A stretch of 64,000 nt of DNA from Podarcis liolepis. Lineage: Eukaryota. This document shows, piece after piece, positions 15,781-48,584 of this stretch. Where the stretch lies: the NCBI GenBank assembly GCA_965112155.1, contig OZ218103.1; one strand, given 5' to 3'. The position numbers were made by a program, and so were the translations under genes. The notes beneath the pieces are model-generated. The model had not been told where the DNA came from, did not search any database, and worked only from the letters and a program-made list of their open reading frames with translations. Position 1 is the first letter of the stretch. Each line of letters opens with the position of its first letter.

Positions 15781-16196
15781 CAGTGGTGCCCCGCAAGACG
15801 AAATTAATTCGTTCCGCAATTTTTGTTGTCTAGCGAATTTTTCGTCTTGCGAAGCACGAAATCCCATAGGAATGCATTGAAAATCAATTAATGCGTTCCT
15901 ATGGTCAAAAAAAGTCCAAACAAAGCCAAATTTGGTACAACAACAGTTTATTAACTGCTCTTTAAAGTCACACATACTGTAAAGAGCAGTTCAAAAATTG
16001 AAGGGAAAATAAATTAACTTTATAAACAAAACATGTCTTTGTTTTTAGACAAAGAAAACAAAGTCGCGAGACATTTTCGTCTTGCGAAGCAAGCCCATAG
16101 GGGAAATTCGTCTTGCAAGGCAAATCGCGAACGGAAAAACCTTTCGTCTAGCGAGTTTTTTGTCTTGCGAGGCATTCGTCTTGCGGGGCACCACTG
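15781..16196. mobile_element. Tigger/pogo-like (TcMar) MITE
   Basis: Perfect 22-bp TIR CAGTGGTGCCCCGCAAGACGAA, TA flanks at 15779-15780 and 16197-16198, subterminal ttcgtcttgcga repeats. Confidence 0.92.
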
Positions 16197-16813
16197 TAAT
16201 TAAATTCATTAGAGACTGCAATGCTGCAAGTCTGTTCTTGGAAATTAGCCCTATTGAATTCCATGGAAGTCAGTATCTACTTCTGAGTAAACCTACATAT
16301 GGTTGACTAAACAGGATAATAGTAGAAATGTAGTATGAGCATGAACAATTAGATTTTTTAGTATGATTGCTGCCCCTTGAGCCATCAGGATGCCTTCTGG
16401 GGAATATGTAAAGAATCTTCATGAGTCTGGAATTTCTTATTTATGTATAAGTTTAGGCATGAAATCAATTACTTGCAGAATTGGCATGCTTTGATTTGGA
16501 TGATATGTCTTATAAGTTTGAGAATATTGCTTTTGAATGCGAAGGCACAATTAATTTCTGCATTTAATTTCTCTAACTTAGGTTACCAAAGTTCGTTCTC
16601 CATCAAATATGGCTAAGCACAATAGTCTGGTCTGCAGAAAGCTGCAACTGAAGGGGGTGGAAACTGTTCCTGCAGGTAGGGAATAAGGACTGAATGCTCC
16701 CTGCAAACAAACAAAAAATCCCAACACTCTCCTTGCGTATAGAAAACCAACATGTCTACATTAAAATTAAAATTTTTATTAATCAGATTTATATACAGTA
16801 CTGCCTTCATCAA

Positions 16814-38608: not shown

Positions 38609-40382
38609 CCGTTAAAGGTATACACTGTTCTGGAGATGTAGCTTCATATCAGCTTTCTGCTCTAGTATTTACAAGAGTAGAAGGGAACATCCGCCAAAAA
38701 GCTGGAATGGTGCATTGCCAGAGGTTACTTTGCTAACTCTACAGCCTTCCATAGCCCTTGCATCTAGTGTGAACTGGCCATAAATCAACAAGTGATTGGT
38801 GTACATGCTCTTACTTAGCATTACAACAGCTAGATGTGGATGCAAAAGACCGCTGTGTAGATTTGCTTTGTGTGTTTTCCATTCTGCAACAGAGAAAAAG
38901 CTTGGGGTCAAGGAAGAGGGTGCAGGGAATGTTTCACCCCGCAGTCTTCTGCATTTTTACCTGAAAGTAAAATCTCATTGCCATGGGTCTTACTTCCAAG
39001 CACTTATGCACAAGACCTCAGCCTTAAAGCAATAATGCCCCAGCAGGTGGTTTTGAATTTTATGGCTTCTAAAAATCCAATGGCTTTATATTTATTTTTA
39101 TATCTCCACCTCCTGCAAAACTTCTTTCTTTTGTCCTCATTGATCATTTCAGCTGCTGATCCATCTCTTCTTCATCCTTTTTCCAGTAGCCACTCTTGAT
39201 ACTGCCAGGATTACTGCTTCTGTGGCCTAAACTGACCAGAATTGGATACAGGTCACTGACTGCTTTGGATTGCAGGTTGCTAAAGTGTGTCACTGCTTTG
39301 TTGGCATCCTTCTGAACAAATTGATCCTAACTTGTCCAACATAACACGTATTGCCCTTTGCTCTCCTTGCCTCTCACATTTCCCTACAAAACACCTCTAC
39401 TTTGATCACCTTGCATATCCCCTTCCATTTTTTCCACTAATTTCCTTTTTGTCTCTGCCTTACACTTCAAGCTTAATGCGCTCACTTTTTAAGGCCTTGT
39501 AGAATTGATTGCTGCCTACAAAGTGGTGCTTGTTCCTCGTTGCATGATATGCTTCTCTCCCATTCTTTTCAACGTAACATCTCGTTTGTTTCCACCTCCT
39601 TCCTTTCCCATGGCATTTTCCCTCTCTGTGTTGTCTGTCCTTGAGTCTTCTTCTATCCCAACCTTTCTGTCTGCCTTGTGGGAGGCTAGATGGAAAACTT
39701 TGAACAATCTAGTTCTAATATAGATGTCTTAATGGACCGACAAAGGATATATTCTGGTTGTGCATAGACTTGGTAATTTAGCACTCGGTTGCATTGCATA
39801 TGAGACTCTGAGCAGCCAGATACTGTAGAGAAGTGAAGGATGGTGCGGAGGCATGTAAATGAATAATAATTCTACTGTTCCACGTACTTTAAACTCTGGC
39901 TGTTTAACTATTAATATTCTAGGTTTATATGATAAGATAAATTGGTACCACTTAGAATACGTAATGGGCGTACTTGAGGTGTTTACTGCTGGGACCTAGG
40001 ATTTAGAATGCATTTTAGGTTCACTTCCAAGGTTTAAAGGGCCTCAGACGCACACTTCTCTTGAAATTAAGATTATTTGTGGGTTTTGATTTTTGCTCCC
40101 CGTACTTGGTATCCCTTTCCAGTTGTAATAATGTTATCAGTGCATGTATTTAGAAAGATTATTTTGCAGCATTTGGCTGTAAGGACCTTTGTGATTTACT
40201 GGAAGGTTCTGCTAATTCATTTACATACAAAATGAGATTATTTGTTACCACATTTAAACTTTTTTAACAGTCATTAGTATTACTTTGTGCTGCACTTATA
40301 AATGAACAGAAGGCAACCCTGTTTAAACCGCAAGCCTGTCTTTGTGTTGAGGAAGACACTGGCTTTCAGTAAATCCATAGTA

Positions 40383-40706
40383 CAGTGGTACCTCGCAAGA
40401 CGAAAAGAATCCGTTCTGTGATTCTCTTCGTCTAGCGGTTTTTTCATCTTGCGAAGCAAGCCCATTGACGGATTAGCGGATTAGCGCTATTAGCGGCTTA
40501 TCTGCTGATCGGATCAGCTGATAAGCGGCTTAGCGGCTTAGAAAAAGGGGGGGGGGAGGAAAAAAAACCCAGCAGGAACTCACAAGACATTTTCGTCCTG
40601 CAAAGCAAGCCCATAGGAGATTCGTTTTGCGAAGCACCTCCAAAACGGAAAACTCTTTCGTCTAGCGAATTTTCCATCTTGCGAGGCATTCGTCTAAGCA
40701 CCACTG
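40383..40706. mobile_element. Tigger/pogo-like MITE related to 15781-16196
   Basis: TA-cagtggtacctcgcaagacgaa ... ttcgtctaagcaccactg-TA; shared tcttgcgaagcaagcccat blocks. Confidence 0.85.
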
Positions 40707-42334: not shown

Positions 42335-42437
42335 GAGAAGCTTTTCTCCCTATTTTATAACCCAGGGCCATCTAGTGAGGATGGCTGTTGGAACTTTCAA
42401 GGCACACAAAGGAAGGTACTTCTTTACACCACACATA
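42335..42437 (+). mobile_element. CR1 ORF2 C-terminal fragment; target of the large MITE
   Basis: Translates TQGHLVRMAVGTFKAHKGRYFFTPHI|V (compare CR1 TRGH..KL....F....RKYFFTQRIV); interrupted at a TA. Confidence 0.65.
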
Positions 42438-43610
42438 CCGTATTTTTCGCCCCATAAGACGCACTTTTTCCCCTCCAAAAATGAAGGGGAAATCGGGGTG
42501 CGTCTTATGGGGCGAATGCCTGCAAGCCTCGCGCGCCCGGCAGGAGGTCCCACCGGGTGCGCGAGGCTTGGGGCGGCAGCCTGTCGCCCGAAGCACGGGG
42601 AGCCCTCTGGAGGGCTCCCCCTGCTTCGGGCGAGTGTCTGCAAGCCTCGCGCACCCGGCAGGAGGTCCCGCTGGGTGCGCGAGGCTTGGGGTGGCAGCGG
42701 ACTGCTTGCGCGCACCTAGAAGCTTGGGGCCAGCTGAGCTCAGCCCGCCCCAAGCTTCTCGGTGCGCGCAAGCAGTCCGCTGCCGCCCCAAGCCTCGCGC
42801 ACCCGGCGGGACCTCCTGCCGGGTGCGGGAGGCTTGGGGCGGCAGCGGACTGCTTGCGCGCACCTAGAAGCTTGGGGCGGGCTGAGCTCAGCTGGCCCCA
42901 AGCTTCTCGGTGCGCGCAAGCAGTCCGCTGCCGCCCCAAGCCTCCCGCACCCGGCAGGAGGTCCCGCTGGGTGCGCGAGGCTTGGGGCGGCAGCGGACTG
43001 CTTGCGCGCACCTAGAAGCTTGGGGCGGGCTGAGCTCAGCTGGCCCCAAGCTTCTCGGTGCGCGCAAGCAGTCCGCTGCCGCCCCAAGCCTCCCGCACCC
43101 GGCAGGAGGTCCCGCTGGGTGCGCGAGGCTTGGGGCGGCAGCGGACTGCTTGCGCGCACCTAGAAGCTTGGGGCGGGCTGAGCTCAGCACGCCCCAAGCT
43201 TCTAGGTGCGCGCAAGCAGTCCGCTGCCGCCCCAAGCCTTGCGCACCCAGCGGGACCTCCTGCCGGGTGCGGGAGGCTTGGGGCGGCAGCGGACTGCTTG
43301 CCGGCATGCAGAAGCTTGGGGCGTGCTGAGCTCAGCACGCCCCAAGCTTCTAGGTGCGCGCAAGCAGCCCGCTGCCGCCCCAAGCCTTGCGCACCCGGCG
43401 GGACCTCCTGCCGGGTGCGGGAGGCTTGGGGCGGCAGCGGACTGCTTGCCGGCACGCAGAAGCTTGGGGCGCGCTGACCTCAGCTTGCCCCAAGCTTCTG
43501 GATTAGCGCAGCGCACCTGGGGGGGAAATAAATTTTTTTCCCTTTATTTCCCCCCCTAAAATCTAGGTGCGTCTTATGGGCCGGTGCGTCTTATGGGGCG
43601 AAAAATACGG
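42438..43610. mobile_element. Tc2/pogo-type (TcMar) non-autonomous element with expanded palindromic interior
   Basis: Perfect 27-bp TIR CCGTATTTTTCGCCCCATAAGACGCAC; TA TSD at 42436-42437 and 43611-43612; extra TIR-motif copies at 42498-42516 and 43567-43580; CCGTATTT termini as in Tc2-like families (Kanga/MER104). Confidence 0.93.
42641..43499. repeat. GC/CpG-rich palindromic minisatellite, 148-bp period, about 5.8 units
   Basis: GCTGAGCTCAGC dyad centres at 42733, 42881, 43029, 43177, 43325 and 43473 (variant); 12-nt loops at 42659, 42807, 42955, 43103, 43251 and 43399. Confidence 0.95.
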
Positions 43611-43644
43611 TAGTTCATAGAATCTTAAAAGCTGGAAGGGACCC

Positions 43645-43820
43645 AAGTAAGAGCTGTTTAACAGTGGAACGGTTTCCCTTGGGAGGTTGTAGACTCTCCT
43701 TCCTTGGAGGTTTTTAAGCAGAGGTTGGATGGCCATCTGTCATAGATGCTTTCGCTGGGATTCCTGCATTTCAGGGGGTTGGACTAGATGACCCTTTGGG
43801 CCCATTCCAACTCTTCAATT
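43645..43820 (+). mobile_element. CR1 LINE 3' end, preceded by a short inverted CR1 tail piece (43616-43648)
   Basis: aagagctgtttaacagtggaac...ggaggtttttaagcagaggttggatggccatctgtc...gttggactagatgaccc...ttccaactct. Confidence 0.82.
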
Positions 43821-43954
43821 ATTTTATGAAAACAAATACAATAATTTCCACATTTGAATGCAGCCAAAGTCCAACCGCTTATGCTTTCTGGAAGTACTGT
43901 AATATATCCTAATACGAGTTATATTTTAGCAGTCAGAGTTTAGCAGGTTTGTGA

Positions 43955-46887: not shown

Positions 46888-48086
46888 CACACACCACACT
46901 TCATATTCTGCAGCCTTGCATAATGAATAGGGCACAAGAGGGGGAAAACAATATCTTAATCAGCAGAATTAGCATCTTTGCTTAAGCCCCCCCCCACAAC
47001 CAACTAGGTGGCATTCAGTTTTACAGTACCGACATCCATCAGCTGTTGGAGAACTTCAGTGTCACTGAGTACACTTCCTTTTTTATAATAGTAATTTGTT
47101 TCAAAGGACAAGTCTAGTCACTTTTATTTTTAAAGCACAAAAGATTACACTATACTAGAAAGGCAAGAGGCAGCATGAAAATAAACAGTTAGGATGAAGC
47201 TATGCATCCAGTTATCTTTTTAATGCAAAAAATGCCATGAATTTTGCCAGAAGAAATGTATTCTATTGATTTCTTGTATTCTTCTTGTTGCTGGACTAAA
47301 TGTTTTGGTAACTATGTCATGAAAGACATTGATTTGGTTAGCTTTTGAAGTGAAGCCAACAAAGGGAGGTTCTTTTTTAAAAAAATTTGCATCAACAATT
47401 TTATTTTGTACATTTATCAAAATTGACTTTTTGGGGAAGGCATTATGACTGCAGTCTGATGCACACATATATACAGCCTAATTTTATGTGTAAGTTCAGG
47501 AGGGCTTACTCAAAGAAACCCACACTGAATTCTGGCATAAGGTGAGGCTATATCACAATGTATTTATTTACTCTCAACGTTGGTTTTTAAAATAGTGCCT
47601 GAAGTTAAAAATCCAACACAATCATGGTTGGAACCGAGGCTCCGGTGACAATGGAAGTTTGTTTTGATAGACAGCTTTGCACTGACAACCACACACACAA
47701 AGTGACCAAAGACAAGGAAGGAAAGGAAGAAACACAGAGTATATAGCACAGAGCTGAGGTTTGGAGTGATGCAGAGGAATGTGTAGAACAGCTGCTCACA
47801 AAATACCTGCCTTGTAAGTAAATGGAAAGCTTCAGCTTCTATTAATTTGACTGGTGTGCTCTAGTCAACAGTAACGAAAATCCTATGTGATGTGCTTGCA
47901 ATGTAGCCCCCATTACATTTGAATAGACAATTTGGGACTGCACTGCTTTTTCTTCTTTTTGAAGTGTGCTGTTTTACACTGTGAGCAATTGAGATATGAC
48001 ATAAAGAAGCGTGAGGTTTTGCAGACGAGTGCTAGCTTAGAATGACTATTATTATTTCTACTAATACTGTATTATAATTGTTATTA

Positions 48087-48255
48087 CCGTATTTTTCGCT
48101 CTATAACACGCACCCGACCATAACACGCACGTAGTTTTTAGAGGAGGAAAATCCGTAGGCATGCCACCCATAGGCATTTCCTCCATAACACGCACAGACA
48201 TTTCCCCTTACTTTTTAAGAGGAAAAAAGTGAGTGTTATGGTGCAAAAAATACGG
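48087..48255. mobile_element. Short Tc2/pogo-type MITE (169 bp)
   Basis: TA-CCGTATTTTTCGCTCTATAACACGCAC ... GTGAGTGTTATGGTGCAAAAAATACGG-TA; internal cataacacgcac repeats. Confidence 0.88.
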
Positions 48256-48584
48256 TATTTTATTTCTGTATGACCCTCCTGGTTGGGAACCCAGACTGGA
48301 GTACATCATAAATAAGATATAGTCAATTAAAGCAACATTACATTGAAACCAATCTAAAAACTCCTAACATCAAGCAGAACCCAACTAAAACCTGTAATAA
48401 CATTTTTCAGCTGCTTGGTACCTGTAAAGGATGCAAGCAGTTTCTGCCTTAAAGTACCAGGTAGAGGCAAGCCCTACACTCACCACCCCCTCCCCTCAAA
48501 AAAAGGCTGGTGACCCCTACTTTACTTACATGGTCCACATAAATGGAAAAACACACACACCAGTGCCTTTTAAATAGATAATTT

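Follow-up and report, generated by a model that had tools for sequence, protein, structure and literature searches.

The hairpin termini of parvoviruses and poxviruses occur as flip and flop isomers, the two reverse-complement forms of an imperfect palindrome, and these isomers arise at each replication via nicking and unfolding of a covalently closed end. Bacterial BIME arrays consist of alternating REP palindromes with two kinds of junction and are tied to a transposase. In the hairpin cases treated in PMC8794818 and PMC8604942, template switching inverts loops and homogenises arms: a forward inter-strand switch inverts the loop in place and other switches make the arms identical. Internal tandem repeats are carried by the transposons and MITEs Xstir, HindIII and BIV160, as listed in PMC6947457, and the Tetris foldback element (PMC4079207) is a further transposon of this kind.

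The window analyzed here, a stretch of 64,000 nucleotides from Podarcis liolepis (contig OZ218103.1), contains an array that shares some properties with each of these systems. The window's family displays both kinds of template-switch product described in those papers, inverted centres (CA|CC versus GG|TG) and symmetrised ones (CA|TG). However, the cases described there are single short hairpins in genes, whereas the window's family forms a chain of 74-bp inverted halves, in which the flips also cover whole halves and were then amplified by slippage and transposition. As in Xstir, HindIII, BIV160 and Tetris as described, a mobile shell encloses an internal array of variable copy number, but in the window's family each unit is palindromic in its own right, and the array as a whole tends towards a single large palindrome. 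The alternating unit and the two junctions are like those of BIMEs, while sequence and enzyme are unrelated (HUH versus DDE), which leaves an analogy only. The comparison with viral flip/flop termini made in the initial annotation is purely formal: neither a terminus nor a resolution site plays a part, the window hairpins are internal chromosomal DNA and their states are inherited. A literature search covering sources other than Repbase, Dfam and subscription journals returned no description of the arrays of this family.

The array makes up the interior of a non-coding DNA transposon of 1173 bp (42438-43610), whose terminal inverted repeats match at 27 of 27 bp. The initial annotation was right that the array is real and read it as a record of micro-inversions, but overlooked that it lies inside a recently inserted DNA transposon. 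The features of the element are the following:

42436..42437, no strand: left TA target-site duplication, a single TA in the empty-site contigs
42438..42519, plus strand: left end of the transposon, with the 27-bp terminal inverted repeat at 42438-42464
42520..42573, no strand: first hairpin, loop 42541 plus, a fixed part of the element outside the 148-bp array
42585..42632, no strand: separate hairpin between the first two loops, from the sequence
42641..43499, no strand: array of 148-bp units (TRF: period 148, 5.8 copies, 93%)
42659..42670, plus strand: loop 2, plus, from the sequence
42731..42746, no strand: first second-type centre, CA|CC state, which 10 other copies share at the same position
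42807..42818, minus strand: loop 3, minus, with arms matching the plus/minus junction hairpin of copy L006
42887..43182, no strand: two identical plus units, loops 42955 and 43103, with halves letter-identical in 6-7 other copies
43183..43478, no strand: right-hand tract of minus units in the standard form, loops 43251 and 43399, with halves shared with other copies
43517..43610, minus strand: right end of the transposon, with the terminal inverted repeat at 43584-43610
43611..43612, no strand: right TA target-site duplication, from the sequence and the empty-site contigs

Near 42498, the left end also holds an inner inverted copy of the last motif of the terminal repeat. Each 148-bp unit consists of two inverted 74-bp halves, 11 of which alternate between 42665 and 43478, and the array is CpG-rich with 72% GC. 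Where halves meet, the centre is palindromic and of one of two types: an asymmetric loop, in plus or minus orientation, or the second centre, in a CA|CC, GG|TG or symmetric state. With DNA parameters, the folding energy of a single 148-bp hairpin comes to about -100 kcal/mol. The 74-bp arms pair with 3-7 mismatches at the inner centres, and therefore a chance origin of the paired arms is excluded.

The 11-mer CAGGAGGTCCC, which marks the plus loop, begins at 42541, 42659, 42955 and 43103, and its reverse complement at 42808, 43252 and 43400 (42807, 43251 and 43399 for the 12-mer used in the initial annotation, whose motifs, coordinates and pattern + + - + + - - are all exact in the sequence). 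Although these seven loop states had been read correctly, the loop at 42541 belongs not to the 148-bp array but to a hairpin of the left part at a spacing of 118 bp, and all 86 copies of the window's family have it in plus orientation. The second centre is located at 42733, 42881, 43029, 43177, 43325 and 43473. It flips too, as had been noticed, since CA|CC at 42733 and GG|TG at 42881 and 43029 are exact reverse complements. The distal mismatch indeed stays unflipped, with T at half position 53 in the forward halves 1, 3, 5 and 7 and G in the reverse halves 2, 4 and 6; in halves 1-7 this position is independent of loop orientation, and the reverse halves 8 and 10 have T. Halves 4 and 6 are identical, as are halves 5 and 7, which makes direct duplication within the window array evident.

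An empty site with a single TA was present in 3 of 3 public runs compared on both flanks (X15, X1 and X17, contig runs with three organism labels). In each of them, a contig of equal length and equal depth reaches 42437 on the left flank and starts at 43611 on the right flank, with an overlap of two letters. Run X5 (left flank only) and run X2 (right flank only) agree with the empty site. The empty-site contig in X15 had a depth of 29.9 versus 62.7 alongside, which hints at a heterozygous insertion, contig depth being no proof. Right ends differed by 0.4% from the majority and rare alleles made up 0.2% of the array bases. Together, the empty sites and these two low values suggest that the window element was inserted recently.

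One of the left-end matches is a 3935-bp TA-flanked coding element, L141 (G000:C5:1571677-1575611). The window element matches its left end at 97.6% over 82 bp and its right end at 90.6% over 96 columns. L141 has an intact-looking, Passer-type frame of 425 aa for a DD35D transposase with BrkDBD and HTH_Tnp_Tc5, in which the catalytic D's were picked by motif and not by alignment with Passer. Such features are given for the Passer family of pogo in the relevant parts of PMC9976928 and PMC7386202, and by this match the predicted transposase is of the Passer type (pogo). L141 is a candidate active source of transposase, and the matching ends indicate that the window element was likely moved by a Passer-type (pogo) transposase. 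The array of L141 lies upstream of the gene and repeats a 119-bp two-hairpin unit 12.4 times. The window copy has no coding capacity, and both it and L141 carry long GC-rich hairpin arrays, unlike the Passer elements described in the portions of the literature cited above; the word 'tandem' is absent from the main text of PMC9976928. In the first 1.8 kb of five more distant coding copies (L142-L146), no hairpin exceeded the threshold. L141 adjoins a frame of more than 1000 codons that is retrotransposon-like in look.

The 30 best DDE_1 loci (L111-L140) were rejected as partners, having no such terminal repeat within the stretches examined. Many near-identical DDE_1 frames of 575-646 codons with other ends were seen throughout the genome, in L112-L140 and further matches, and loci of this type appear to form a second abundant young family of the pogo type.

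A total of 1.57 Gb of genome was searched for copies of the element. The exact 41-bp left end gave 210 matches (control, 0) and a looser end pattern 3315. The loci studied were the 30 best matches to the window, 80 of the 100 left ends listed out of the 210, and 14 loci with the asymmetric centre; 44 of these loci were picked for likeness to the window, so the sample favours sharing, and the copies are not independent. Both ends were found at 121 loci, 86 belonging to the interior family of the window and 35 to a sister family. TA was present on both sides in 115 of these 121 (the left TA partly by selection), and the right-hand TA was also present in 75 of the 79 copies chosen by their left end. 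Within the window's interior family, 69 of the 86 copies had at least two halves, with 625 halves in total, and the loop strings of all copies were read from assembled sequence. L159 and L162, in which the left end was unrecognisable, were omitted from the counts, and L148 had one end only. L099 had no right end within 4 kb and proved to be the coding copy L141. Among the copies of the window's family, L047 is interrupted within its left end by about 430 bp of inserted DNA, and in L039, L056, L061, L076 and others the amplified unit is a 119-bp or 118-bp hairpin and not the 148-bp one.

Flipped units of the window element were shared with other copies. Eight of its 11 halves were letter-identical, in the same orientation, in 2-21 of 56 other copies: those of the plus unit in 6 and 7 copies, and halves 8, 9 and 11 in 17, 21 and 20 copies, respectively. 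Halves 1, 2 and 10 had no identical twin among the copies compared. L005, located on another chromosome, has the same first six loops and first four centres as the window, with 0-4 differences per half. T predominates at half position 53, with G present there in 25 of 69 elements. The T in the later window units had been interpreted as a corrected mismatch, but it is the commonest state of the family and half 8 recurs unchanged in 17 of 56 other copies; it was likely inherited and not corrected in the window copy.

The reverse half of the minus loop between plus units (loop 3) differs from the half at the plus/minus junction of L006 by the centre flip alone, and its forward half is a direct chimera of the L006 flanking halves. 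Had the plus unit been flipped locally instead, there would be one extra mismatch, at a CpG site (position 8). By this thin margin, decided by one CpG site, the lone minus loop seems to fit direct duplication better than a local flip. The out-of-order string of the window can be explained without a new inversion, because direct duplication across a plus/minus junction fits. Repeated inversions inside the window copy, as initially proposed, are not supported, given both this and the letter-identical flipped states in other copies, and most of the window's flips therefore probably did not happen in the window copy.

The CA|CC state was found at the first centre in 11 of 29 cases (versus 18 with GG|TG) and at later centres in 2 of 38 (versus 36), in copies that are not independent. 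It occurs on several different flanking haplotypes, and for this reason may have arisen more than once.

The loop strings were strongly ordered across copies. Among the 55 arrays with at least two loops, 30 were all minus, eight all plus and 14 plus-then-minus, so that 52 consisted of one orientation or of a plus run followed by a minus run; the window element, L005 and L080 accounted for the three out of order. Several copies form one large palindrome over the whole array, their plus run being the reverse complement of their minus run. Counted in the first 57 elements, the 14 mixed arrays contained 16 orientation changes, compared with a shuffled mean of 34.6 and a minimum of 22 in 20000 shuffles, and three minus-to-plus steps, compared with a mean of 17.3 and a minimum of 9. 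Plus loops with a CpG change were initially ambiguous, and their orientation was recounted on position 1. With 52 of 55 strings ordered and the first loop always plus (86/86), both isomers are not freely regenerated at each centre. The paralogous copies thus show both orientations recurring, but in ordered runs, and the binary orientation code suggested for each copy is not supported by them.

Non-CpG marker alleles at half positions 1, 16, 46/47, 52, 53G, 67C and 74C were present in both forward and reverse halves. Direct slippage cannot carry a letter from forward to reverse halves, and these markers show that inversion-type copying took place in the window's family. The plus unit has the letters of the other arm at positions 1-16 and not at 46-53, and CA|CC exchanges positions 67-68 only, leaving 53 unchanged. 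The proposal that some inversions were local agrees with this pattern, in which the centre was exchanged (67-68; 1-16) while the outer mismatches (53; 46-53) stayed. Linked markers point to at least three scales of inversion: some took in 16-40 bp around the second centre, others 32-90 bp around the loop, and others entire halves. From the marker groups we infer that at least about five separate inversion events would be needed, and recurrence could add more.

Among alleles found in three or fewer copies, there were 11 cases of repetition within a copy in one orientation and three in both. The latter were in L012, L080 and L160, at least one being of the CpG type; three further both-orientation rows, from L057, were excluded, since a deletion in this copy makes halves 5 and 6 overlap. 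This proportion suggests that direct copying outweighs inverted copying in the family and that inverted copying probably still goes on at a low rate. The growth of the array by template switching mixed with direct duplication, as first envisaged, is therefore compatible with the family, in which inverted and direct copying are both represented, but not as repeated inversions inside the window copy.

Hairpins in other arrays of the same shell did not flip. The sister family (L031 and 34 more loci) has a direct array of GC-rich hairpins, 0.4-2.2 kb long, with a unit of about 89 bp as read from the sequences. Its 35 copies contained no flipped loop among 597 (244, 130 and 223 forward). Likewise, there were no flipped loops in the L141 array, against 12 and 10 forward ones, and none of 61 centres of the hairpin at 42585-42632 was in the reverse-complement state (56 copies). 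Flipping thus appears to go with the alternating architecture and not with hairpins as such, and the absence of flips from the 597 direct-array loops suggests that long inverted homology matters. In the 119-bp unit, two of 44 loops matched the flipped form at one mismatch; they were counted as ambiguous, because this loop differs from its own reverse complement at two places only and no exact flip was found.

Taken together, the flips probably represent a few past inverted-copying events in source copies, multiplied by slippage and transposition in a non-autonomous, TA-flanked transposon that was likely moved by a Passer-type transposase. A small founder, in which a plus hairpin and a minus hairpin flank a second-type centre, would form one long palindrome. 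Every 74-bp half has inverted partners, and therefore a replicating or repairing strand could occasionally switch to the opposite template and invert a centre or whole halves. Much more frequent slippage by 148 bp in direct register would yield plus units first and minus units after them; the out-of-order string of the window element would arise without a new inversion if the stretch spanning the plus/minus junction were directly duplicated; and transposition would then spread flipped units to further copies. Template switching and crossover or conversion between inverted halves give the same products and are indistinguishable by sequence alone.

The CA|CC state on varied flanking haplotypes in 11 copies, the symmetrised CA|TG in four copies and the many recombinant hairpin classes could also be expected if the centres of an alternating array were a hotspot, flipping often and independently after insertion, so that shared states would partly reflect recurrence; recurrent, reversible inversions of spacers are reported for yeast in PMC8604942. 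We regard such a hotspot as unlikely, since only three of 55 strings depart from the ordered pattern, two of them being the same string, the flipped units agree letter for letter between loci, and the flipped centre is associated with the first position. An origin of the flips in the assembly graph is very improbable. Near-perfect 148-bp palindromes at 72% GC are difficult to sequence and the strings come from assemblies, but the array is shorter than 1 kb and lies within unique flanks, L005 has the same start string with private differences of its own, the arm markers travel coherently with loops whose strings are ordered across 55 arrays, and the asymmetric centre has 65 exact copies genome-wide. 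Two exact reverse-complement states at both centres would be in line with an enzyme-driven or selected flip/flop switch giving each copy a binary code, as in viral hairpin termini or with invertases. Such a switch is hardly credible here: the breakpoints fall in several intervals and not at a single site, the strings carry little information with the first loop fixed in 86 of 86 copies, the insertion is missing at the site in three runs, which argues against a conserved function of the locus, and a cut-and-paste transposase is the sole enzyme tied to the element. A mechanism for such flips is already known, and nothing points to a switch or a code.

At least four different hairpin arrays (148, 119, 89 and 119 bp) occur in the same young shell, the coding copy included. 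It is conceivable, if rather doubtful, that a spreading Passer lineage builds or reshuffles hairpin arrays in its own life cycle, or was selected to carry them. Template switching and slippage would then occur during repair of the gap left by excision. If so, the family, with hundreds of copies that are young and in part polymorphic, would naturally report how the length of inverted arms sets the rate of template switching in a vertebrate germ line. The family itself appears to be that of a young Passer transposon in a vertebrate, with a coding copy that looks intact and with hundreds of derivatives carrying GC-rich hairpin chains of variable length inside. Flips in alternating inverted arrays and their absence from direct ones provide a built-in contrast within one shell, by which inverted and direct copying can be measured. 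Each insertion adds a CpG-rich, potentially cruciform-forming kilobase to the genome.

Other repeats were observed in the window. To the right of the insertion, at about 43690-43825, lies a fragment of a high-copy repeat with very high contig depth, which we take to resemble a CR1-type 3' end. A short TA-flanked relative of about 170 bp, with similar terminal repeats and without an array, is located at 48085-48256. Another MITE family is probably represented by two short, related elements at about 16050-16200 and 40380-40650, in which TCGTCTTGCGA-like motifs recur and an end is of the CAGTGGT/CCACTG type.
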